Assembly: GCA_048938895.1 (NCBI GenBank)
Contig: JBHLLU010000086.1
Span: forward strand, 1 to 12,790
Reading direction: 5' to 3'
Source: Promethearchaeota archaeon
GTDB lineage: Archaea > Asgardarchaeota > Lokiarchaeia > Sigyniarchaeales > SOKP01
DNA length: 12,790 nucleotides
Translations under genes and position numbers: made by a program
Shown here: positions 1-12,790 of the stretch, in pieces
How the letters are laid out: each line of letters begins with the position of its first letter
Numbering within the stretch: position 1 is the first letter of the stretch
Notes under the pieces: model-generated
What the model saw: only the letters and a program-made list of their open reading frames with translations
The model's database searches: none
What the model was told of the DNA's origin: nothing

Positions 1-1121
1 GAACTCACTGTTTGAATTGCCGCGATTTTATTACCTAAAATGTTTTCCATTTCTTCAAATTTATAATCTGCACCAAACGTCTCTCTGATATTTTTCTTCC
101 ATTCTTCAATTTGTTCACTGGATAAAGAATCTCTTTCATCTATAGGTACATTCTCCTCAAACACCCGTTCTCTTAGCTTTTCTAATTCTATTTGAGCAAT
201 ATCTTTTAGTTTTAGGACCTCCTCATTTAGGTTAAGATCAGGCTTATACCCATATTTTTTTTCAAATTCAACTTCCGCTTTAATGACACAATGATTTCTA
301 TTACGAGGTAATCCTTTTAAAGTACATGCTGCAACTAATTTATCATCCGCGGGAGGAATTGGAACCAGACATCTGTAACATGGAGTCTGGTCTAAAACTT
401 CTGGAGCATATTTCCAGTCAAATACCATTTCGATTTCTTTTCTAATTTTATCTTCTATAGGATTCAATCGTGAAGCTTTAATACGTTCAATTTCATCTTC
501 TAATAGCTCTATTTCTCTTTGAGCTCTAAAATAATCAGGATATTCCACATCTGATAATTCCCATAGGTGTGCTTGAACTAAATTCTCAATCTCATTTTCC
601 CTGTTTTTGTATTTTAAACCTGCACCCTCGGGAATTACTATTTGCACATGCCCCTCAAATCCTACTGTTCCTCCTTCAACCATAGGTTTCTTCATTCTTA
701 GGCAGATTTTATTCAGATCTAATCTTGCGTTAAAATTATCCAAAGCAGCGACAATTACATCCGATTCTTCATAGACGGACATTGGTAATTTTTGTAGTTT
801 TTCAAAATAATAATCAATATTAAGATAAGGATTCATTTCTTTCAATCGTTCAGCAGCAACTTCTGCTTTTGGGCGTCCTTCATCTCCAGGTCTAAATAAC
901 ATTTGCCGAGATAAATTAGATGTTTCTATTGTATCTAGATCAATTAATATCAATTTGCCTATTCCCATAAGCGAAAAATCTTTAGCAATCTCACAACCTA
1001 AAGCCCCTATACCTACAATCATAATACAACCATTATTTATAACTTCTTGATCCCATCCATCTATAAGTTGTTGGCGAGCATACATTCGTGCTTTAACAAT
1101 ATCTTCAACTTTTTCTGTCAT
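1..1121 (-). CDS. Ubiquitin-activating enzyme E1-like protein (ThiF/MoeB/E1 superfamily, UBA2/UBA3-like); partial, 3' end lies beyond the left edge of the window
   Basis: Manual translation, open from ATG 1121 to position 1 (alternative in-frame ATG at 1136): MTEKVEDIVKARMYARQQLIDGWDQEVINNGCIMIVGIGALGCEIAKDFSLMGIGKLILIDLDTIETSNLSRQMLFRPGDEGRPKAEVAAERLKEMNP...VIVAALDNFNARLDLN...MVEGGTVGFEGHVQIVIP...TPCYRCLVPIPPADDKLVAACTLKGLPRNRNHCVIKA...ILGNKIAAIQTVS. Motifs: YxRQ arginine finger, GxGxxG (996-1013), D.DTIE.SNL.RQ.LF, LDN..AR, CxxC (369-380) and an E1-type catalytic motif CT...PR...HC. Confidence 0.95.
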   Translation of the reverse strand, partial: MTEKVEDIVKARMYARQQLIDGWDQEVINNGCIMIVGIGALGCEIAKDFSLMGIGKLILIDLDTIETSNLSRQMLFRPGDEGRPKAEVAAERLKEMNPYLNIDYYFEKLQKLPMSVYEESDVIVAALDNFNARLDLNKICLRMKKPMVEGGTVGFEGHVQIVIPEGAGLKYKNRENEIENLVQAHLWELSDVEYPDYFRAQREIELLEDEIERIKASRLNPIEDKIRKEIEMVFDWKYAPEVLDQTPCYRCLVPIPPADDKLVAACTLKGLPRNRNHCVIKAEVEFEKKYGYKPDLNLNEEVLKLKDIAQIELEKLRERVFEENVPIDERDSLSSEQIEEWKKNIRETFGADYKFEEMENILGNKIAAIQTVS

Positions 1122-1171
1122 TTTCAAAATCCCCATTTAATTCGAATATACTATAATAATTTAATCATCTA

Positions 1172-1187
1172 AATATAAACTCTTTTA
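1172..1187 (-). promoter_or_regulatory. Putative archaeal BRE/TATA promoter of the E1-like gene
   Basis: The minus strand reads taaaagagTTTATAtt: a purine-rich BRE-like stretch followed by TTTATA (1179-1174), about 40-55 nt upstream of the candidate starts. The AT-rich background lowers specificity. Confidence 0.4.
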
Positions 1188-1241
1188 GTTGATTAAATAT
1201 AGCAGATGGAAATGCCATATAGAGTAAAAAGTATTAAAAAA

Positions 1242-4200
1242 TTATTTGCTATTTTTTTTCTTTTTTCCTGCTTCTTTTATCAATTTTTTTAAATTATCGA
1301 CTTCCTCTCTCTCTTTAGCGATTTGTAACTTTTCCTGGAAGTCTTTCTGTTCACTTTCCTTCATTTTTAACTCATTAATAAGTTCTTCTTTTATTTTTAT
1401 CATATCTCCCATTACTCTTCTAAATTCTTTAGCTTCAGATTTAATCTCCTTTCTTCTCTGAACATCAGTTAATTCTTGTTCTTTTCTCCTTTCTTCAATT
1501 AAATTAATAACTTCGTCAGCTAGATTACTAACCTCTCCTATTGTCTCCTTCAATCTTGCATCATCTGCTCTTCTTCGACTTTCTTCCAATTCTCTCTGCC
1601 TTTCTAGTTGTTCTTGAATTTGCTGAATTCTTAAATCTTCACTTTCAACTCTTTTTTCAAGAGCTTTTGCATTTCTTATCTCAGTTTCAATATATTTTAT
1701 TTCTTCATCCCAACCAATTTCCATAAAGTTCTTTTTAGCAGTTTCAAAATTTTGATAAGCTCTCTTAAAGTCATGATATGCTGCCCACTTTTTACCCTCA
1801 TCAATTAATTTTAATCCTTCATCCTTAATTTCTTCCAAACGCTGCTTGCTTAGGATTAATTCCCTATACTGCCTTTCTTGTTCTCTCTTTATTTTTTCTT
1901 GCGCTATCCTTCTTGCTGTAACCTCCTCTTGGAACAATTCATACTCTTTCTGCCGTTGAATTAATGCTTGTTCTTCTAAACGTTTCTTTTCTTGAAATTT
2001 AACCTGTTCTTGTTGTAGATCTTTGATTAAGGCATTTAAGTTATTTAATTCTGGCTCCCATCCTATATTTTCTGCCAATAGATTCCTAGCTTGTGTATAC
2101 AATGAAATAGCATTATTATAATCAGGTGTTAATTGTTTCAAATATTTTCCTGCTTCTTCCAGCATTGAATATGCGGATTCTCTAATACTCGTTTGTTCTT
2201 GAACAATTCTTTCTCTTTCTTGAAGTGCTAATTCTTGGGCTTTTTTCTTCTCCCTTTCTTGTCGTTGCCTTTCTTCAACAAGTAATTGTAGATCTTTTTC
2301 TTCTTGAATTTTTTCGAGTTCTCTCTGAAATTGTAGATCTTGCATTTCTTCTTTTTGATAGATCATTTGTTTGACCTTAACAATCATATCTTTTATTGAA
2401 TCTGTAGGAAAATGTAATTCATTTAGAATTAATTCTGCTTTTCTATAGCTTTTAATGGCTTTATCATATTCAAGCTCCTTTACCAGTTCCTCAGCATCAT
2501 CTAATATTTTGAATGCATCTTGTTTTCGTGATTCAAGTCTAGCTTTTAAATTTTCAATCTCTTCTAGTTGAACTTGTTTTGTTTGTAAACTTTCAGTTTC
2601 TCTTCTTAATTCTTCTGCTATCTTTTGTTGGAATGTCCATTCTTCCCGTTCTTTTTCTAATTTCCTTTCTAACTCTTTCTGTTTTTGTATTTGATGCTGC
2701 TTTTTCCTGTTTTGAACATTTTGAATCATATCTCGAATACTATCTGTTGGGAAAGCAATCTCATTCAAAATAACTTCAGCAGAGCGATAAGTTTCAAGCG
2801 ATTTATCATATTGAGCTTGATTCATATAAATTTCGGCTTCCTCTAAGAGGTTAAAAGCCTCTTCTTTTCTTCTTTCCATATAATTTTGGTATTGCTTTTG
2901 TCTCTCTAGCTGCTCCAATTTGCTTTTTCTTTTAATTTCATCGATCTTAATGCTTTCTGCTATCTTCCTTTGGAAGTTAGCTTCTTCTCTTTCTCTCTCT
3001 AATTTAATTTCCAACTCTTTTTGTTTATTAATAATTTCTTGTTTACTTTTCGACTGTATTTTGTTAATCATTTCCTTAACGGCTCCTGAAGGAAAACCTA
3101 TTTCATGCAATATTAATTCTGCTTCTCGATATATCCTAATTGCTTGTTCATACTTACCCTGTTTTAAAAATTCTTCGGCATTCTCCATTAAATTAAATGC
3201 TTTAGACTTTTTCTCTTCAAGATTTTTTAGCAAAACGTCACGCTTTTGGATTTGAATTTTCTTTTCTCTTAATCTCTTTTTTTCGACCTGAATAGATTCA
3301 TGAATCTTTTTCTGGAATAAATCTTCCTCTTCTTTTTGGTTTCTTAATAATTCTTGCTTTATTCTTTCACTTTCTTCTAATTTTCTTTTCCTTACCCCTA
3401 TAGTAGCAACAGTATCATTCAATAACTTTAAATATGGTCCAATCCAACCAATCTCAGTTAAGAGCTTAATAGCTCCATGAAATTTTTCAAGTGAGATATC
3501 AAAACTATTTTGCTTGAGGAATTTCTCTCCCTCTTCAATCATCTTAAAAGCTTCTTGCTGTTTTATTAAATTGTGTCCAGAGATTTCTCTCTGGATTTCT
3601 GCGGATTCCAATTCTCTCAATGCCATAACTTCCTTTCTTTCTTTTTCAAGATTCAATTTCTCAATAAACACTTTATTAGCTTTTTCTTCTTCAATAGTTT
3701 TTTCCAGTTCTTTTTGTTGATTTATAGCTTTTTCTCTTTTTCTATTTTGAATATTATTGATCGCTTCTTGAATTATTGGAATCTCCTCAGTCCATTGTAT
3801 CTGAGCAAAAATGTTGGCTACATCATTATACAATGTAAGAGCATCATCATAATTACCTTTTGATAGAAAAACTTGAGCATTATCCAATAAATTAAACGCA
3901 ACTTCCTTTTGTTCTTCTCGAAAAGTTAGTTCTTCCTCTTTCTTTCTGAGAATAATTTCTTGTTGTTTGAATCGCTGCCGTTGATTATATGCTTCGATTG
4001 CAATTTGAGTTTGAAATTCTTTTTCGAATCTTTCTTGCTTTAAATTTTCCTCTAACTCCCTTTGTTTAATGAGTTCAGCTTCACGCTTTTTATCCTCGAT
4101 AGCTCTTATAGAATTCTTGATCAACTGAATCTCATCATCCCAATGAATCTCTTTGAAGATCTTTAGTACTTCTTGGTATAATTCAACTGCAGCTTCGAAC

Positions 4201-7200
4201 TCACCCTTATTGATGTTATTTTGTGCTTCCTCCAACAAATTAAATGCATTTTTTTCCTTTTCTTCAGATTGTTTCCTAATTGCTTCTTGCCTCTTTAGCT
4301 CCTCCTGTTTTTCCCTCATTTTTTCTTGTTCATACCTTACTTTCTCAGCAATCTGTTGTTGAAATTTCAGATCCTCTTGTTCCTTCCTATATGCCAACTC
4401 TAATTCTTTTAGTTTATTGTTCTCGTCTTCTCTTCTTTTATCTTGGATTTTTTGGATCATTTCTCTGATTAATTCAGAGGGATAACCAATTTCATTTAGA
4501 ATTAATTCGGCCTGTCTATATTCTTCAATAGATTTGTCATAGTGCCCTTGTTTTAATAAATTCTCTGCATCATCCATTATTTTAAAAGCTTCCATTTTCC
4601 TTGTTTCATTAATTTTTAACTTTTCTTCATGTTCTTGTAGCTGTATTTGTTTCTTTTTAATTCGATTTTGTTCTAATGTCAATGAATCTGAGATTTTTTT
4701 CTGGAATACCTCTTCTTCTTTTTGATATTTTAATTGTAGTTCAAATTCAACTTGTTTTGTCTTTTCTTCCTCCGTATTTTTGTTTTGAATAGCTGATATT
4801 GTTTCTTTCAAGAGTTTCAAATATTCTGCACCCCAGCCAATTTCTTTCAAAATTTCAATTGCTTCTTGATAATTTTTTACAGCTTCCTCGTATTGTCGAG
4901 CTTGAATTAAATCTTCCCCCCCTTCCATTAATTCAAATGCCCTCTGTTGTTTTGCTAAATTTTGGGTTGATGCGGATTTTTGTTTTTCTATGAATTCTAG
5001 ATTTCTAAGAGTTTGTTGTTTTTCTCTTTCTAAATAATGTTTAATATTATCAATAAACGCTTTTTCTTCAACTTCTTTTTTAATTGCTTTTTCCATTTCC
5101 TTCTGTTTAGAAATTAAGTCATTTCTTCTCTTTTCTTCTATTTCTTCTATTGCTTGTTTTAATGTTGTAACTTCATCTGTCCATTGAATTTGAGCGAAAA
5201 TGTTTAAAACCTTATAATAAATTTCAAGTACAGCATCATAATCATTATTAGCTACTAACTTTTGCGCCTCATCTAATAAATTAAATCCTTCTTCCTTTTT
5301 CTTCTCACGAAATGCAATTTCTCTTTCACGTTCCCTAATAATTATCTCTTTCTTCTTAATTTTATCTTGACGTGTCCTAATTTCATTAGCTATCAAATCA
5401 TGAAATTCTCTTTCTTGCTTTTCTTTTTCTAGCTCAGATTGTAATCTTATCTGCTCCTGTAACTCTGCTTCTCTTTTTCTGTTTTCAATTTCTATTATAG
5501 AATTTTGAATTAAACTTATTTCATTATACCAATCTGCCTCAGCGAAGAAATTTATGGCATAATGAAGAATTTCAATTGCATTATCAAATTTTCCATCTGA
5601 TACTTCTTTCTGTGCCTGTTCAAGTAATCTAAATCCCGCTTCTCTTCTTTCTTCCCGATATTTTAACTCTTCTTCACGTTCTTTTAATTCTATTTCTCTC
5701 TTCTGAATTTTTTTACGTTCTTGTTTTAGTAACTGAGTAATTTGTTTCTGAAATGCTTCTTCTTCTTTTTCTCTTTTAATCATTTCTTGCATTTGTTTTT
5801 GCTTTAGAATTTTCTGCTCTCTTCTTAATTCTTCAACCTCCATTATAGCATTTTCAATAAGGGAAATTTCATCATGCCATTGAATTTCAGCAAATAAATT
5901 TGCTGTTTTTTGATATGCTAATATCGCATTTTCATAATCCCCTTGATTTATATAGCTTATAGCAGAATCTATTGACTGAAATGCTTCTATTTTACGTTGC
6001 TCAAATTGAAATATTTCTTTTTCCTTATCTTTTAAAACAATTTCTTTTTGCTCTAATTGCTTACGTTGTTTATTTAATTGATTTGTTATTTGTTTTTGAA
6101 ACTCTAATTCTTCTTTTTCTCTTTTTTCTAATTTCTGTTGTATATCATATTTCTTCTGCAATTGGTCTTTTTTTATTTTCTGTACATTTGCAATAGTATT
6201 ATTAATATTAGAAACATACACTTCCCAACCAGAACCTAATTCTTCCAAGAAGGCTAAAGCTTTTTGATATTCGGTTATAGCTTCTTCATATTCTTTTGAT
6301 TGTAGTTTATTATCAGCATTAGATAGAATTACAAAGAACTCTTTTTCTTTTTTTGCCCTAATTTCTCTTTCTGTTTCAAATTCTAGTTTTCTTCTTTCTA
6401 TTTCCCGTGCTGTTTGCTGAGATTCCGTTTGTTGTTTTTTATAGATCGAATCTTGTAAAAATATAAGATTTTTTTCTCTTCTGCTTCTTACTTCTTTTGA
6501 TTTCTCTTTTTCTAACTGTCTTTGTTTCATATCTTCTATTAAATTAGTAATAGGATGAATATATGAGTCCCAGTCAATTGATCTGAATAACTCAATAGCC
6601 TGTTCGAATTTTTGTTCCGCTTGCACATAATTTTTCTCCCTTTCGAGTTTCTTTCCTAGATCGATTAAATGAAAAGCTCTTCCTTGAATTTCTTCTTCTT
6701 GTTTCTTTTTATCTTCAAATTCTCTTAACTTTTCTTTTTTCATTTCTGATTCTGATGCTATAATTTCTGCATCCCTTTGACTTCGCTCTAAAATCTCAAT
6801 GTTTGTTTGTTCCTGTTGAGCTTGGAACCTTTCAAATTGTTCTTTATCTTTTTTAAGCTTTTCAATGATAACTTTAATATTTTGGGTTTGATCGTCCCAC
6901 CCAATTGAATTCAATAACTCTATAGCTCTTTCATAATTAGTTATTGCTTTATCAAATTTCCTTTCATTTTCAAATTCTTTAGCTTTATCAATATGGGCAA
7001 AAGCATGATTTTGAGTCTCCTCTTCCTGCTGTTTCCTAGCTCTATATCGAACAATAGATTCTGCTTTCTCCTTGTTTGCAGTCTCCCCAAACATTCCAAC
7101 AACTTCTGGTTTTTTATCTTCTACTTTTTGCAGAAATTCTTCTGGAGGTGTTAATTCCTGTAGTTGCTTTTGATGAATATATTCTTCTTTTTTTAATGTT

Positions 7201-7616
7201 TTGGAGAGTTCATTTATTTTTAATCTCAAATTCTCTAACTGAGCTTCAGACCAACCAGATTGAATCAATAGATTAATAGCAGAAATATACTGCTGAATCG
7301 CATCTTCAAAAAAACCATCAGATTCTAACTTCTTCGCTGCTTCTAAGAGTGCAAACGCTTGATCTTGAATTTGTTCTGCTTGAGCTTTTAATTGAGTATG
7401 TTGATAGATTTTATCCTGTTTCTGGTAATTCTTTAATTCTTCTACTCTTTCATATATCTCATCGATTCTATGCATTAAAAACCCACTCTTCTTCAAGCAG
7501 TCAACTGCTAGCTGATAGTTTGAGATTGCTTCTTCGACATTTTTATCTTCTTCAAACTTGTGTGCAATCTCTAAATATTTTAAAGCTTCTTGAGCTAATT
7601 CTTCTGGATTTTGCAT
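1242..7616 (-). CDS. Giant (2124 aa) tandem-repeat helical protein with ~18 MIT/TPR-like helical-bundle units separated by E/K/R/Q-rich coiled-coil or single-alpha-helix segments; function unknown
   Basis: Uninterrupted 6.4-kb ORF. The motif AF.LL..A......g.Y..A...Y..A..I...I.W recurs 18 times at roughly 110-120-aa spacing. No obvious transmembrane segment or signal peptide; only one Cys seen. Confidence 0.9.
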   Translation of the reverse strand: MQNPEELAQEALKYLEIAHKFEEDKNVEEAISNYQLAVDCLKKSGFLMHRIDEIYERVEELKNYQKQDKIYQHTQLKAQAEQIQDQAFALLEAAKKLESDGFFEDAIQQYISAINLLIQSGWSEAQLENLRLKINELSKTLKKEEYIHQKQLQELTPPEEFLQKVEDKKPEVVGMFGETANKEKAESIVRYRARKQQEEETQNHAFAHIDKAKEFENERKFDKAITNYERAIELLNSIGWDDQTQNIKVIIEKLKKDKEQFERFQAQQEQTNIEILERSQRDAEIIASESEMKKEKLREFEDKKKQEEEIQGRAFHLIDLGKKLEREKNYVQAEQKFEQAIELFRSIDWDSYIHPITNLIEDMKQRQLEKEKSKEVRSRREKNLIFLQDSIYKKQQTESQQTAREIERRKLEFETEREIRAKKEKEFFVILSNADNKLQSKEYEEAITEYQKALAFLEELGSGWEVYVSNINNTIANVQKIKKDQLQKKYDIQQKLEKREKEELEFQKQITNQLNKQRKQLEQKEIVLKDKEKEIFQFEQRKIEAFQSIDSAISYINQGDYENAILAYQKTANLFAEIQWHDEISLIENAIMEVEELRREQKILKQKQMQEMIKREKEEEAFQKQITQLLKQERKKIQKREIELKEREEELKYREERREAGFRLLEQAQKEVSDGKFDNAIEILHYAINFFAEADWYNEISLIQNSIIEIENRKREAELQEQIRLQSELEKEKQEREFHDLIANEIRTRQDKIKKKEIIIREREREIAFREKKKEEGFNLLDEAQKLVANNDYDAVLEIYYKVLNIFAQIQWTDEVTTLKQAIEEIEEKRRNDLISKQKEMEKAIKKEVEEKAFIDNIKHYLEREKQQTLRNLEFIEKQKSASTQNLAKQQRAFELMEGGEDLIQARQYEEAVKNYQEAIEILKEIGWGAEYLKLLKETISAIQNKNTEEEKTKQVEFELQLKYQKEEEVFQKKISDSLTLEQNRIKKKQIQLQEHEEKLKINETRKMEAFKIMDDAENLLKQGHYDKSIEEYRQAELILNEIGYPSELIREMIQKIQDKRREDENNKLKELELAYRKEQEDLKFQQQIAEKVRYEQEKMREKQEELKRQEAIRKQSEEKEKNAFNLLEEAQNNINKGEFEAAVELYQEVLKIFKEIHWDDEIQLIKNSIRAIEDKKREAELIKQRELEENLKQERFEKEFQTQIAIEAYNQRQRFKQQEIILRKKEEELTFREEQKEVAFNLLDNAQVFLSKGNYDDALTLYNDVANIFAQIQWTEEIPIIQEAINNIQNRKREKAINQQKELEKTIEEEKANKVFIEKLNLEKERKEVMALRELESAEIQREISGHNLIKQQEAFKMIEEGEKFLKQNSFDISLEKFHGAIKLLTEIGWIGPYLKLLNDTVATIGVRKRKLEESERIKQELLRNQKEEEDLFQKKIHESIQVEKKRLREKKIQIQKRDVLLKNLEEKKSKAFNLMENAEEFLKQGKYEQAIRIYREAELILHEIGFPSGAVKEMINKIQSKSKQEIINKQKELEIKLEREREEANFQRKIAESIKIDEIKRKSKLEQLERQKQYQNYMERRKEEAFNLLEEAEIYMNQAQYDKSLETYRSAEVILNEIAFPTDSIRDMIQNVQNRKKQHQIQKQKELERKLEKEREEWTFQQKIAEELRRETESLQTKQVQLEEIENLKARLESRKQDAFKILDDAEELVKELEYDKAIKSYRKAELILNELHFPTDSIKDMIVKVKQMIYQKEEMQDLQFQRELEKIQEEKDLQLLVEERQRQEREKKKAQELALQERERIVQEQTSIRESAYSMLEEAGKYLKQLTPDYNNAISLYTQARNLLAENIGWEPELNNLNALIKDLQQEQVKFQEKKRLEEQALIQRQKEYELFQEEVTARRIAQEKIKREQERQYRELILSKQRLEEIKDEGLKLIDEGKKWAAYHDFKRAYQNFETAKKNFMEIGWDEEIKYIETEIRNAKALEKRVESEDLRIQQIQEQLERQRELEESRRRADDARLKETIGEVSNLADEVINLIEERRKEQELTDVQRRKEIKSEAKEFRRVMGDMIKIKEELINELKMKESEQKDFQEKLQIAKEREEVDNLKKLIKEAGKKKKNSK
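2856..5633 (-). repeat. Intragenic tandem super-repeat, 2 x 1389 nt (463 aa, four units each)
   Basis: NIFAQIQW occurs twice, with Trp codons at 5181-5183 and 3792-3794 (1389 nt apart). The unit-opening Phe codons at 5631-5633, 4242-4244 and 2853-2855 are each 1389 nt apart. Further paired motifs: KREAEL twice, EIGW...YLKLL twice, NL.KQQ.AF twice, EIG(Y/F)PS..(I/V).EMI.KIQ twice. Confidence 0.85.
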
Positions 7617-7822: not shown

Positions 7823-9781
7823 ATGGATTTAAAAAGTAAAAAAATCATCATCGATTTTGAACCAATATCAAGAAGAGTCATATTATCAAGTGAAGAGCCT
7901 ATATACAACCTAATTTCAGAAATAGGTATTCCAATCAGATCTATCTGCGGTGGCTCTGGTACATGTGGAAAATGCAAGTTATTAGTTCAAAAAGGAAAGG
8001 AATTTTTTGTTTTACCAACTTCTTCGGAAAAGAAATTTATAGATCAAAAAGAATTGGAATATGGATGGCGATTAGCTTGTCAGGCTAGAATTGATGTTGA
8101 TAAACTCCATTTCCTCGCAACATTAGATTCACCTCAGATTCGAGTATTTTTACCAAATGAGCTAATATTGGAAGATTTCAAGATTCTCACTGATGGTAAA
8201 GATATAGGAGTAGCTCTACTTCCTTCAATAAAGAAATATTATTTAATTGTGGATAAGGCTTTATTAAGAGATCCTCAGGCTGACTTTGAGAGGATAGTAA
8301 ACAAATTATTTTCCAATCATAAAGAATTTAATAAAAAGGGGAAAATAAATATCAATTTTGATTTACTAAAAGAATTACCAAATATTTTAAGAGAGAATGA
8401 TAATAAGATTACAGCTGTAGTGTGGAAGAATAATACGATTATTGCTTGCGAACCTGGGAACACGGTTGAGGATAATTTTGGAATAGCTTTTGATATAGGG
8501 ACAACTACAATCGTGGGTTATTTGATAAATTTAAATAATGGTAAAATTTATGCTATCGCATCTAATTTAAATAGTCAAACAGCTTATGGGGAAGATGTTA
8601 TCACCAGATTGACTTTCATAAAGAACAATAAAGAAAATTTGAATGTGTTGAATTCTGTTGTTATTAATGATTTAAACCAAATTATTTTTGATACTTGTTC
8701 TGAAGCTGGTGTTGACCCATCTCGAGTCTATGAAGTAAGTGTAGTTGGGAATTCTGTTATGCATCATTTATTTTTGGGTATAGATCCTACATATATCGGG
8801 ATAAGTCCTTATGTGCCTGTAATTCAAAAAGGATTACATCTCCCTTCTAAATCATTAAACCTTAAGATGTCAAAGACTGGGATTGCATATATTGCCCCTG
8901 TAATATCTGGTTTTGTAGGTGCGGATACAATTGGAGTAATTCTTTCTTCAAAAATCTACAATGAAAAAGCTCTTACACTAGCAATCGATATTGGAACTAA
9001 TGGTGAGATCATTATAGGAAATAAGAAAGTAATGGCTGTTGGATCCTGTGCGGCAGGATCTGCATTAGAGGGAGCTCATATTAGTAATGGTATGAGAGCT
9101 GCTGCCGGAGCTATTGATACATTAAAGATTAATCCTAATACTTTAGAGGTAATTTATACAACTATCAAGGATAAAAAACCAATTGGAATTTGCGGATCTG
9201 GCCTAGTAGATATCGTAGCAGAGATGCTTAAATCTAAAATTCTAACGAGGAGTGGCAATTTTAATAAAGAATTTATTGATCATGAGAGAATTGTTAAGAA
9301 TAATAAGACTTTTGAATTCATCATTGCAAAAAAAAGTGAAACTTCTTTGGGTAAAGAAATAAGCATTTCTCAAAACGATATCAGACAAATCCAAATGGCA
9401 AAAGCAGCATTCTTTTCTGGGACCCGATTGATATTAAAAACTCTAAATAAAAGCAATTTAAAAATAGAACAGGTATTTTTAGCTGGAGCTTTTGGGAATT
9501 ATATTAATGCTCAAAACGCAAAATTTATTGGAATGATTCCTGATATCCCTAATCATAAAATATATCAGATAGGTAATGCTGCAGGTATTGGTGCACAATA
9601 TTGCTTGTTGAATTCAGAATTAAGAAATAAAGCAGAACATCTATTGAAGAAAATAAAATACGTAGAAATAGCGATTAAAGAGGAATTTCAAAAGGAGTAT
9701 GCTGAAGCTATGTATTTTCCTCATTTAAATCTGAATTATTTTCCTTCTTTAATAGATTATAGGGAGATTCAAAAGAGATAA
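7823..9781 (+). CDS. ASKHA-domain ATP-dependent reductive activator of corrinoid proteins (RACo/DUF4445 family) with N-terminal [2Fe-2S] ferredoxin domain
   Basis: N-terminal CGGSGTCGKC...RLACQ plant-type 2Fe-2S motif. ASKHA/RACo motifs AFDIGTTT, YGEDVITR, VVGNSVMHHLFLG, GFVGAD, IDIGTNGEI, SCAAGSALEG, GICGSG, DIRQIQMAKAA, LAGAFG, GNAAGIGA. Length of 652 aa is typical of the family. Confidence 0.93.
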   Translation: MDLKSKKIIIDFEPISRRVILSSEEPIYNLISEIGIPIRSICGGSGTCGKCKLLVQKGKEFFVLPTSSEKKFIDQKELEYGWRLACQARIDVDKLHFLATLDSPQIRVFLPNELILEDFKILTDGKDIGVALLPSIKKYYLIVDKALLRDPQADFERIVNKLFSNHKEFNKKGKININFDLLKELPNILRENDNKITAVVWKNNTIIACEPGNTVEDNFGIAFDIGTTTIVGYLINLNNGKIYAIASNLNSQTAYGEDVITRLTFIKNNKENLNVLNSVVINDLNQIIFDTCSEAGVDPSRVYEVSVVGNSVMHHLFLGIDPTYIGISPYVPVIQKGLHLPSKSLNLKMSKTGIAYIAPVISGFVGADTIGVILSSKIYNEKALTLAIDIGTNGEIIIGNKKVMAVGSCAAGSALEGAHISNGMRAAAGAIDTLKINPNTLEVIYTTIKDKKPIGICGSGLVDIVAEMLKSKILTRSGNFNKEFIDHERIVKNNKTFEFIIAKKSETSLGKEISISQNDIRQIQMAKAAFFSGTRLILKTLNKSNLKIEQVFLAGAFGNYINAQNAKFIGMIPDIPNHKIYQIGNAAGIGAQYCLLNSELRNKAEHLLKKIKYVEIAIKEEFQKEYAEAMYFPHLNLNYFPSLIDYREIQKR

Positions 9782-10048: not shown

Positions 10049-10573
10049 ATGTCAAGTTTTAAACTAAAAGTATTACTTACCGGTGCTGCTGCGGTTGGAA
10101 AAACTTCCCTTGTGCAAAGATTTATACGCAACCGTTTTCAAGCAAATTATAAGCTGACAGTAGGAGTTGACATTCTTACAAAAGATGTTGAATTCAGATC
10201 AGGTGAAATCGCAACACTTTCAATATGGGATATTGGGGGGCAACAAAGATTTGAATTTATTCGTAGTACATTTTACAAAGGAGCAGCTGGAGCTCTTTTA
10301 GTATTTGATTTAACTAGGGAACAAACTTATACAGAAACAAGGAAATGGTTAACGGAAATACGCCAATTCGCTGGAGAAAATATACCTTTTGTGTTAATTG
10401 GCAACAAAGCTGACTTAATTGAAGATGTTGGTTTAGTAATAGATCGGGATGAAGCTAGATCGTTTGCAGAAAATGAGGGGAGCATTTATATTGAAACCTC
10501 AGCTAAAACGGGAGTAAACGTTGACGATGCATTTACTGAATTAACCCGTCGAATTATAGATTCAAGAATGTAG
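10049..10573 (+). CDS. Ras-superfamily small GTPase, Rab-like
   Basis: G1 GAAAVGKTS, G2 YKLTVGVD, G3 WDIGGQ, G4 GNKAD, G5 ETSAK. RabF-like segments VGVDI, TLSIW, RFEFIR, FYKGA, LVFDLT. 174 aa. Confidence 0.96.
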   Translation: MSSFKLKVLLTGAAAVGKTSLVQRFIRNRFQANYKLTVGVDILTKDVEFRSGEIATLSIWDIGGQQRFEFIRSTFYKGAAGALLVFDLTREQTYTETRKWLTEIRQFAGENIPFVLIGNKADLIEDVGLVIDRDEARSFAENEGSIYIETSAKTGVNVDDAFTELTRRIIDSRM

Positions 10574-10637: not shown

Positions 10638-12047
10638 CTAGACTTCAAATTCTTCGTATAAGTCATCATGTATAATATTAATTGCATCTACTAGTCTTTC
10701 TCTATCAATCACTATAGATAAATTCAATTCTTCAAAACTTTGTGAAATTGCTTTAACTTTAATGTTTTTCTTGCTTAAAGCATTGAAAATGTCAGCTTTA
10801 GTTTTTGTTTCAAGAATTTTCAGTCCAGTTATGTTAATTACCGCAACATTATCCCTTTTTATAGTAAAAAACTCTGAAAAGAATTTTGAATTGCTTAATG
10901 CTTGAATAGCCCTTTCTGAATCAACCGAGTTAATGATAAAAGATGTGCTTATTTCAGATGAGCTTTGTGCTACTAATGAAACACTTATTTGATTTTTACT
11001 CATCGTTTTAAAAATTTTTGCTAAGACACCAGGTACATCAACTAAACTTCCAGAGATTACTGTTACAATCGTTGCTAACTCAACAGCAGAAATTCCCTTT
11101 ATCTGTTCTTTATCAGTTTTATCAGAAATTTCAGTAAAATTATCACCTAATGGATTATCAAAATTTCTAATTTCTAACGGGATTTTAAACTCTTCTATAG
11201 CTTCTAAACATTTTGGATGAAGAATTTTCGCCCCAAAATTTGCTATATGTTTTGCTTCATCATAATCTAAATTTTTTATGAGGGAAGAATCAGGTACGTA
11301 GTTTGGATTTATTGCTAATAATCCATCAACATCTTTCCACAAGATTACTTTAATATCTTTATCAACTCCACTACTATAAAGCGAATGTGCTAAAATTGTA
11401 GCGGTGTAATCTGATCCACCTCTCCCTAAAGTAGTGATATACCCTATTTTATTTCTCCCAATAAAACCTGTTAAACAAATTATTATATCTTTCTTAGGAT
11501 TTTCAAGAAATGGAATCAACAATTGCTTAATCCGAGAATTTGTTAAACTATATAAAGGATATGCATTATTAAATTCATCATTTGTGATAATGATTTTATT
11601 AGCTGGAATATATACTGAATCTAATCCGTTACTTAAAAGATATTCATTTAAAATATAAGTTGATAAGATTTCCCCAAAACTTAAAACATAATCTCTATAA
11701 TAAGGTTCTAGACCAAATTCTTGTATATCTGCAAACGTATCATCTAATTCACTTAATTTATCATCAATCCAGTCCTTAGCTTTGAAATAGTACTCCGAAT
11801 CTTCTTCGAATATTTGTTCAATTATATCAATATGGCGTTTTTCAATTAGAGATATATTTTGGTCTGTAGTTTTACTATCTTTTAATTCCTGAGCTGTTTT
11901 AAGTAATAAATCTGTGATTCCATTAAATGCTGAAATAACATAAATTTTCTTTACATTTTTATAAATCTCTGTAATCCCTAATATTTTCTTGAAAGCTTTT
12001 TTATCAATTAAACAAGAACCTCCGAATTTCATTACATTAATCGGCAT
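10638..12047 (-). CDS. lysC: Aspartate kinase (amino-acid kinase domain plus two C-terminal ACT domains)
   Basis: N-terminal VMKFGGS, VISAFNGITDLL, SFGEILS, TGFIG, TTLGRGGSDYTA, WKDVDG, FGAKILHP; ACT-like PGVLAKIF...ISVSLVAQSSSEISTSF. Confidence 0.95.
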   Translation of the reverse strand: MPINVMKFGGSCLIDKKAFKKILGITEIYKNVKKIYVISAFNGITDLLLKTAQELKDSKTTDQNISLIEKRHIDIIEQIFEEDSEYYFKAKDWIDDKLSELDDTFADIQEFGLEPYYRDYVLSFGEILSTYILNEYLLSNGLDSVYIPANKIIITNDEFNNAYPLYSLTNSRIKQLLIPFLENPKKDIIICLTGFIGRNKIGYITTLGRGGSDYTATILAHSLYSSGVDKDIKVILWKDVDGLLAINPNYVPDSSLIKNLDYDEAKHIANFGAKILHPKCLEAIEEFKIPLEIRNFDNPLGDNFTEISDKTDKEQIKGISAVELATIVTVISGSLVDVPGVLAKIFKTMSKNQISVSLVAQSSSEISTSFIINSVDSERAIQALSNSKFFSEFFTIKRDNVAVINITGLKILETKTKADIFNALSKKNIKVKAISQSFEELNLSIVIDRERLVDAINIIHDDLYEEFEV

Positions 12048-12158: not shown

Positions 12159-12790
12159 ATGATTGATCTTCACCTCCATTCAAGTAATTCTGATGGATTG
12201 GATACCCCCTCTCAATTAATAACTAAGGCTGTAGAACTCAATCTAAAAGCAATTGCGTTAACTGATCATGATACGATAGAAGGATTAGGGGAGTTTTTAT
12301 CGTTTGCAGAGGGCCATGAAATAATTGCCCTTCCAGGAATAGAAATCTCAATTAGACATGAACCAAGAAGATACCTAATAGATGTACATATTATCGGTTT
12401 AAATGTTGATCATCATTCAATAAGTTTAATCAAGGCATTAGATGATCAAATTAAAGGTAGACTTAAACAAAAAGAAGATATATGTAAACGTTTGAGGGAT
12501 GAGTTTGGATATAATTTACCATTTAGCGAGGTAAAAACTGCAGCAGGAACTGGCGTTGTTGGACGCCCTCATATAGTGCAAATTATGATAAAAAATAATC
12601 CCGACAAGGTTAAAGAAAAGTCAAAAAATGAACTTTTTAAGATGATTAGTATTGGAGGAGAAGCATTCGTAGACAGAGAGGTTGAACTTAATCTTGAAGA
12701 ATCCATTGAACTAATTAAAGCTGCTGGAGGAATTCCAATTTTGGCACATCCAGGAATTCATGAAGTACCAAGTAGGGAAAAATTTATTGA
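12159..12790 (+). CDS. PHP-domain metal-dependent phosphoesterase (TrpH/YciV-like); partial, runs off the right edge
   Basis: Manual translation from ATG 12159: MIDLHLHSSNSDGLDTPSQLITKAVELNLKAIALTDHDTIEG...PGIEIS...DVHIIG...VGRPHI...IKAAGGIPILAHPG. Motifs DLHxH, SDG, TDHD, GxEIS, GRPH and AHP are diagnostic. No stop codon before the window end. Confidence 0.93.
   Translation, partial: MIDLHLHSSNSDGLDTPSQLITKAVELNLKAIALTDHDTIEGLGEFLSFAEGHEIIALPGIEISIRHEPRRYLIDVHIIGLNVDHHSISLIKALDDQIKGRLKQKEDICKRLRDEFGYNLPFSEVKTAAGTGVVGRPHIVQIMIKNNPDKVKEKSKNELFKMISIGGEAFVDREVELNLEESIELIKAAGGIPILAHPGIHEVPSREKFI

Follow-up and report, generated by a model that had tools for sequence, protein, structure and literature searches.

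The window analysed here is a 12,790-base stretch of DNA that makes up an entire contig (JBHLLU010000086.1, here C16) of a Promethearchaeota archaeon genome assembly (GCA_048938895.1; 4.65 Mb in 174 contigs, ~30% G+C); close homologues are labelled Promethearchaeota or Lokiarchaeota by their sources. Two co-oriented genes at its left end are the subject of this report, one encoding a giant protein of 2124 amino acids (aa) composed of repeats that resemble both MIT and TPR domains, and the other an E1 enzyme of the kind that activates ubiquitin-like proteins:

1242 to 7616, minus strand: giant repeat protein gene, an open reading frame (ORF) of 2124 aa
3 to 1136, minus strand: E1 gene, N-terminal 378 aa, open at the left end of the window (the contig end)

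[quoted passage not shown] We find this proposal largely unsupported: the two genes are probably independent ones, kept as neighbours by inherited gene order, and the repeat protein is the more interesting object, a new variant of helical-repeat architecture. Both gene models of that description are real, as is the spacing it gave of about 105 to 120 base pairs between co-oriented genes, the stop of the giant gene lying 105 nucleotides (nt) from the first ATG of the E1 frame (1136) and 120 nt from the ATG that relatives share (1121, the protein then starting MTEK); the window is, on the other hand, the whole contig, and the E1 is truncated by the contig end.

A giant protein of eighteen modules

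A profile made from 10 units detects 18 units in the giant protein (E-values 1.7e-8 to 3e-39), each of ~116 aa and, once past a short first unit, recurring every 109-119 residues. Pfam matches the protein as a whole to MIT (7e-21; 74.5 bits against a cut-off of 30) and to TPR_2 (1.9e-15), and the ~18 MIT/TPR-like bundles that had been read from the sequence are thereby confirmed. The composition is 17.7% glutamate, 12.7% lysine (270 residues) and 9.6% glutamine, with a single cysteine. The following parts can be told apart:

Within 1242 to 7616, minus strand: 18 units, each with a TPR/MIT-like bundle of three helices and a charged helix (profile and model)
6504 to 7616, minus strand: N-terminal four modules, residues 1-371, conserved position by position in 29 orthologues
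1644 to 6353, minus strand: modules 5-18, repeat number varying in relatives
Residues ~2028-2124, minus strand: charged helical tail ending in KKKKNSK (translation)

The N-terminal four modules show a mean column identity of 55% in the alignment of the 29 orthologues, and both of the best single-module MIT scores, 26.6 and 26.1 bits, fall within them. Modules 2 and 3 are separated by a proline-containing linker that is not repeat-like (window 7070-7160, residues ~153-182), and its motif P-x-(I/V)-V-x-x-F-G, kept in most of the orthologues, may mark a hinge or a short docking motif. Relatives have 14, 17, 18, 20 or 25 units with a constant period of 113-119 residues, and the extra runs seen in their lists of periods (such as 116, 116, 117, 114) suggest that repeats have been duplicated in blocks. 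The orthologues range from 1640 to 2927 aa and carry no source names other than 'hypothetical protein' or 'TPR repeat protein'. A literature search found no description of the repeat protein family, and the passages of PMC10936438 and PMC9192718, supplements aside, contain neither a tandem MIT/TPR rod protein nor such a gene pair.

We note that the genome has one paralogue of the giant protein, encoded on contig C34 (L122 2675-7945, G000). It is 1756 aa long and has 10 modules, split by a module-free region of ~700 residues; its strand also carries, a few genes upstream, a small GTPase gene and an apparent proteasome alpha-subunit gene.

Predicted fold of the unit

A single module modelled alone with AlphaFold2 gives a per-residue confidence (pLDDT) of 97.4 and a predicted TM-score (pTM) of 0.83, and a three-module fragment, modelled with a 97-row alignment of such fragments, gives 95.1 and 0.49, with helices at 2-20, 24-40, 44-136, 140-156 and 160-252. 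Each modelled bundle combines the last part of a 93-residue helix, a return helix of 17 residues and the first part of the following 93-residue helix; the parts of the helices that pack into a bundle are only 17-19 residues long, and the model leaves the other ~55 residues as a charged helix that is free. About 27 positions of this linker are nearly devoid of hydrophobic residues, with at least 60% E/K/R/D at many columns, and are modelled as an isolated helix with pLDDT above 90, while along the next 25 positions a hydrophobic face is conserved (F88, I92 and positions 96, 103, 108 and 110 of the unit profile). The third helix of each bundle would thus continue as a 93-residue helix through an E/K/R/Q-rich stretch into the first helix of the next bundle, and the protein as a whole would be a chain of beads along a rod, connected as in spectrin. 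Such a rod, with 0.15 nm for each residue, would advance ~11 nm per unit and reach ~0.2 micrometre for 18 units if straight; it could serve as a long spacer or scaffold, and its bundles are perhaps docking sites for helical peptides. Two points limit this reading: with a pTM of 0.49 for three modules, the inter-module angles, and hence the rod length, are not established, and the partly hydrophobic face of the linker makes a dimeric coiled coil possible as well as a free charged helix.

The bundle resembles two families at once. Single modules score 19.8-26.6 bits against the Pfam MIT cut-off of 30, whereas the genome's own Vps4-like ORF scores 59.9. When one module is searched with Foldseek, MIT domains are the top natural matches, all at E-values of 0.1-0.5, and include NRBF2 (TMq 0.85, root-mean-square deviation (rmsd) 2.4), archaeal and human Vps4 and MITD1 (0.60-0.63) and katanin p60; the module profile reaches Atg38 and the MIT chains of Vps4 and katanin at E-values of 0.003-0.02. 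An exhaustive structural scan with VIA-align gives LGN TPR triplets a Z of 11.3 and MIT domains 8.8-9.7, a range that is common for helical bundles. Foldseek with the three-module model found no match at E ≤ 0.001, and the first 900 residues have a best score of 0.89 in the ESM Atlas, to unnamed and TPR clusters, which we treat as a lead only. A conventional TPR array is not what the model contains, as each unit has ~1.5 TPR-like hairpins followed by the ~55-residue helix; TPR families reach the cut-off by their summed score, 0 single stretches doing so, and consensus TPR arrays superpose at an rmsd of at least 9. The earlier assignment of the modules holds in Pfam, Foldseek and the structural scan, and since the fold searches do not tell MIT from TPR we call the module TPR/MIT-like.

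Three known architectures share parts of this design. MIT domains (Vps4, MITD1, NRBF2/Atg38, katanin p60) are likewise asymmetric three-helix bundles of ~60 residues, and in NRBF2/Atg38 the third helix of the MIT domain continues into a long helix, as modelled here; the giant protein differs in having eighteen copies per chain, in single modules that fall below the family cut-off and in a fold that is not separable from 1.5 TPR repeats. Spectrin, alpha-actinin and the plakins have tandem three-helix bundles with a continuous inter-repeat helix and a period of ~110 residues, the last helix of one spectrin repeat being continuous with the first of the next, and the variable copy number at a kept period in the giant protein is also spectrin-like. 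The connectivity alone is alike, however: the bundles are much smaller, with helices of 17-19 residues, Pfam Spectrin gives zero matches, and the search for terminal domains, actin-binding or other, found none. Finally, single alpha-helix (SAH) spacers of the ER/K type occur in, for example, myosins VI and X, and the ~27 charged linker positions, nearly without hydrophobics and modelled as an isolated helix, resemble them; the second half of the linker differs by its conserved hydrophobic face, through which pairing or partner binding would be possible.

The E1 enzyme and a neighbouring E2

The E1 gene can be completed from a second contig, C140, whose last 77 bases are exactly the first 77 of the window, an overlap that is present in no other contig. 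The E1 frame runs for 154 further residues on C140 (locus L003 19460-19999, minus strand), this piece matches residues 349-527 of the intact E1 in a relative at 93% identity, and the gene order of C140 is that found beside E1 in relatives; on these grounds we accept the join. Read across it, E1 is 532 residues long if it begins at the first ATG and 527 if it begins at the conserved ATG at 1121, which, judged by the alignment with relatives, is likely to be the true start.

Its Pfam ThiF match (4.6e-52; 177 bits against a cut-off of 28.1) identifies a Rossmann-type adenylation domain, and its top solved relative is the active adenylation half of UBA1 (3.7e-40), then UBA6 and UBA7, with UBA3 at 1.2e-27, UBA2 at 3.2e-27 and MoeB at 3.9e-22. 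Two CxxC pairs (CYRC 253-256 and CLAC 430-433 of the protein read across the join) presumably form a zinc-binding site as in MoeB/UBA2/UBA3-type enzymes. Cys271, in AACTLKGLP, is aligned by HMMER to ICTLKNFP of human UBA1 (a local stretch of 2.5 bits, not significant), the cysteine of which we take to be the catalytic one. The ThiF match, the CxxC pairs and this candidate catalytic-cysteine motif agree with the earlier reading of the protein as a eukaryote-type E1 like UBA2 or UBA3, and one source names its orthologues 'ubiquitin-activating enzyme E1 C'. With UBA3 (NEDD8), UBA2 (SUMO) and the active half of UBA1 it shares the ThiF/Rossmann fold, the GxGxxG and DxDxxxxSNLxRQ stretches, the CxxC pairs, the CTLKxxP cysteine motif, an extra C-terminal domain and a UBC E2 gene next door; it differs in that similarity is limited to residues ~13-170 and in a helical insert of ~80 residues before the first CxxC. 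The ~95 residues past the second CxxC gave zero Pfam matches. No NAE1/SAE1-like partner gene is adjacent, so the enzyme is likely a homodimer. From these motifs and matches the E1 appears as a further representative of a known enzyme type.

The preliminary description had suggested that the sequence to the left of the window be inspected for ubiquitin, E2, RING, JAB or ESCRT genes. A UBC E2 is indeed found there, as a 173-residue frame on C140 that is convergent with E1 (tail-to-tail) and starts 148 nt past its stop; E1 and E2 are therefore not co-transcribed. The E2 frame matches UQ_con at 3.3e-26, aligns to solved E2s at 2.9e-19, and has WHPNI (the HPN motif) and ICLD (the catalytic cysteine) in register, with a 13-residue insert after the cysteine. 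The other expected genes did not appear: ubiquitin (PF00240) has zero matches in C16 or C140, its matches in the genome being confined to contigs C123, C126 and C53, and neither RING nor JAB domains turned up among the neighbouring ORFs in Pfam scans. The E1 would probably adenylate a ubiquitin-like protein encoded elsewhere, hold it as a thioester at Cys271 and pass it to the E2 that is encoded tail-to-tail with it. Candidates for the ubiquitin-like protein are the ...ASTAG proteins of C126 and C53 and the ...QAGGA protein of C123.

The genome holds two other E1-type/E2 pairs, one in a ubiquitin operon on C126 and a short pair on C15. Operons of the Caldiarchaeum subterraneum and Asgard type encode E1 and UBC E2 together, as the present locus does, and that on C126 has ubiquitin-like genes followed by a 411-aa E1 and an E2. 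The present locus differs in the convergent orientation of E1 and E2 and in the missing ubiquitin, RING and JAB matches, and its E1 is ~120 residues longer than that of the operon.

Some variation in E1 and its surroundings was seen in relatives. In sister family f4 the best E1 match (L063 7489-9867) has 792 residues and two ThiF stretches, a fused UBA1-like layout, and the E1 matches of three other f4 genomes lie within ORFs of 732-985 aa. In genus g12, 2-3 in-frame stops were reported within the span of E1 matches (G042:C52:6390-7547, G044:C178:453-1592, G061:C712:616-1755) and a frame of 539 residues is nonetheless open, possibly an insertion or start-site effect; this genus also has short repeat proteins of ~1080 aa. 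A gene for a HAD-family hydrolase of ~205 residues adjoins the E1 orthologue in many loci of families f1, f2 and f3 (for example L100 11891-12505, L050 2927-3529, L058 13613-14221 and L057 5826-6410), starting 2 nt after E1 in L058, and is not at this spot in the genome of the window.

Adjacency within a conserved gene block

The right half of the window holds four further genes:

7823 to 9781, plus strand: RACo-like corrinoid activator gene, all four RACo domains
10049 to 10573, plus strand: Ras-family GTPase gene (Pfam)
10638 to 12047, minus strand: aspartokinase gene with ACT domains (Pfam)
12159 to 12788, plus strand: PHP-domain gene (Pfam)

These four are part of a block that is syntenic across the family, with the conserved ten-gene order deacetylase, an uncharacterised gene (unknown-184), PDCD5-like, E2, E1, giant gene, RACo, Ras, aspartokinase, PHP. 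In all 11 other loci of the genus, fetched around E1, an 18-unit giant gene lies upstream of E1 in the same orientation. Twenty loci from seven further genera of the family were picked by the giant gene alone, and E1 is downstream and co-oriented in 19 of them, the twentieth ending at a contig edge. In 25 of the 31 family loci that were fetched the giant gene has RACo beside it, and E2 lies within a few kb in 8/11 loci of the genus and 13/20 of the other genera. Because the whole block keeps its order, housekeeping genes included, the adjacency of giant gene and E1 is no better conserved than that of unrelated genes.

Outside the genus the two are often not immediate neighbours. An antisense subtilase gene of ~500 residues stands between them in 12 of 19 loci (Peptidase_S8, 12/12 at 1e-44 to 1e-52), and family f3 has this subtilase too, placed between E1 and the gene of a 7-module relative, those two genes being convergent. 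As f3 shares this placement, the arrangement with the subtilase is probably ancestral and the direct adjacency in the window probably derived. Beyond this, no repeat ORF was found in the sequence fetched around E1 at seven loci of sister family f2 and one of f4 (L068 and L069, from f2, with only ~3.4 kb of upstream sequence), and in three complete genomes, two of f2 and one of f4, the repeat proteins are 30 kb, 50 kb or megabases from E1. The conservation of the pair among Asgard genomes that was put forward as a check has a divided outcome, direct or near adjacency being kept in 30 of 30 informative family loci and linkage absent from f2 and f4.

A small GTPase was considered as the true conserved partner of E1. 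In f2 a Ras/Roc-family small GTPase gene lies less than 4 kb upstream of E1 in 5/7 loci (L058 11381-11965, L060 11256-11858, L062 5838-6440, L069 1026-1694, L061 9068-9670); in two of these it is the next gene upstream in the same orientation, 7 nt and 154 nt away. We set this candidate aside: the f2 gene is another paralogue than the Ras gene of the window (E-values of 1e-18 to 1e-23 vs 1e-100), and genes of its kind occur often in these genomes.

An upstream element of E1

The short intergenic region carries two features:

1226 to 1241, minus strand: T runs (T6 and T5) directly after the TAA stop of the giant gene (1242-1244)
1172 to 1185, minus strand: conserved BRE (B recognition element)/TATA-like element AAAGAGTTTATATT, ~55 nt upstream of the conserved E1 start

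The T runs may be an archaeal termination signal; a scan of the window for hairpin-type terminators, which has no model for archaeal T-tract terminators, found none. The TATA-like element noticed in the preliminary description is real. Its 14-nt pattern, AAAG[AG][AG]TTTA[TA]ATT, precedes E1 in 18/29 family loci (a count that omits L105 and L117, in which the E1 start is cut, and L119, which has no E1) and in 0/6 loci outside the family, and it is present in 6 of 11 loci where the gene upstream is the subtilase and not the giant gene. Where it is present, the element goes with E1 whichever gene lies before it, and it would be a promoter from which E1 is transcribed on its own. Four promoter-like sites from a sigma-70 scan were disregarded, as that method does not apply to archaea.

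Distribution of the repeat unit and the E1 type

The full 116-residue unit profile matches 17/17 sampled f1 and f2 genomes and 0/103 genomes of 24 other Asgard families, and the repeat family is confined to one order among the Asgard genomes sampled. A shorter, 61-residue module profile matches 148 of the 151 genomes of the class, with single weak matches only outside the order. Among 1.84 billion representative sequences there are matches to 116 clusters at E ≤ 1e-30 and to 418 at E ≤ 1e-10. The full-length E1 type of ~530 residues has nearly the same range, being found in 16/17 sampled genomes of the order and in none elsewhere; outside the order only the Rossmann half of E1 matches, at 1e-41 to 1e-50. 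The sole family genome without this E1 type, G060, also has few unit matches, and as the genes are adjacent a single gap would explain both absences.

Neighbours by descent or a functional pair

The reading that we favour is that the giant gene and E1 are independent and have remained neighbours through shared inheritance of gene order, which we consider probable, though well short of certain. It accounts for the ten-gene synteny, the intervening subtilase, the upstream element belonging to E1 and the unlinking of the genes in f2 and f4. Several observations weigh against it. Direct or near adjacency in 30/30 informative loci of eight genera, together with proximity in f3, would be expected of a functional pair too; the loss of linkage in f2 and f4 is compatible with a functional tie, since even E1 and E2 separate there, the E2 orthologue (72-76% identity) lying more than 1 Mb from E1 in the same complete genomes; the strict pattern of the upstream element is missing in 11/29 family loci; and the order-level distribution common to the unit and the E1 type weakly favours a link.

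If the pairing were functional, the giant protein would serve the adjacent E1/E2 cascade as substrate, scaffold or adaptor, and a ubiquitin-like protein would be received or recruited by its bundles or by its 270 lysines. The preserved orientation and adjacency, the closeness of the genes in f3, the frequent presence of E2 within a few kb, the shared distribution and the lysine content all fit such a role. Housekeeping genes of the block are, however, equally conserved in position without any relation to either protein, the subtilase interposes itself in 12 loci, E1 has an upstream element of its own, f2 and f4 have the genes apart, and a Pfam scan recognised no ubiquitin-binding or E3 domain in either the giant protein or the E1. 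On balance we regard this pairing as unlikely.

A proposed connection to ESCRT

The preliminary description linked the locus to ESCRT through the MIT-like repeats and through the known clustering of ubiquitin-system genes with ESCRT genes in Asgard archaea. A Snf7 family search finds a single ESCRT-III gene, on contig C75 (L120 1131-1784, G000), and the Vps4-like ORF with the best MIT match is on contig C95 and not beside it; ESCRT families were absent from the neighbours of E1 and the giant gene scanned with Pfam. Nor is a system of giant protein and E1 tied to ESCRT supported by the comparison of loci, in which the adjacency occurs only within the syntenic block, is interrupted by the subtilase and is lost in f2 and f4.

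It could still be that the giant protein by itself is a multivalent ESCRT-III scaffold, in which 18 true MIT domains bind a MIM-like C-terminal helix and the rod organises or measures ESCRT-III assemblies. The whole-protein MIT match, the lead of MIT domains among the natural Foldseek matches of one module and the reach of the module profile to Atg38 and to Vps4/katanin MIT chains argue in this direction. So does the ESCRT-III tail: in an alignment of 25 distinct tails, taken from 30 family loci, the motifs DDLQYIPE and SKEKLxxEIEKLRKELE are conserved, the KEKLxxEIEKLRKELE part strongly, and we take the latter motif to resemble the consensus of a MIM1-type helix. Against these points, no single module attains the MIT cut-off, the Foldseek matches have E-values of 0.1-0.5, the structural scan rates TPR triplets level with MIT domains or above them, and the ESCRT-III and Vps4-like genes are on other contigs. 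A complex prediction with the N-terminal 371 residues (29-row alignment) and the 58-residue ESCRT-III tail (25-row) gave 0.00 and 0.01 against a mark of 0.32, which counts neither for nor against binding. On the whole we think a scaffold of this kind quite improbable.

The most elaborate possibility is a speculation to which we give very little credence. The protein would be a spectrin-like ruler or scaffold of ~0.2 micrometre, holding helical tails, for instance the ESCRT-III C-terminus, on its 14-25 MIT-like bundles, and the order-specific E1/E2 would modify it or be recruited by it, the whole forming a lineage-specific module in which ubiquitin-like tagging is coupled with a rod of the cytoskeleton.

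Other observations on the two contigs

A scan of the window and the end of C140 at Rfam gathering thresholds gave zero matches. An ORF on C140 (L003 13143-14144) has 4Fe-4S-like cysteine motifs and includes a run of masked bases read as X.

Significance

Family-wide strict adjacency of two genes, as in this locus, can be plain synteny, and it calls for comparison with the flanking genes before a functional partnership is read from it. The E1/E2 pair encoded here indicates that more than one E1/E2 cascade is at work in these genomes. Research on Asgard archaea looks for early forms of the cell machinery of eukaryotes, and the giant protein joins two eukaryote-style designs in one archaeal protein, the continuous-helix bundles of spectrin-like chains and long charged helical spacers. 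If it does form a rod, it would be a candidate cytoskeletal spacer, with the number of units varying from 14 to 25 at a fixed period, in cells of a group that is known for its long protrusions.

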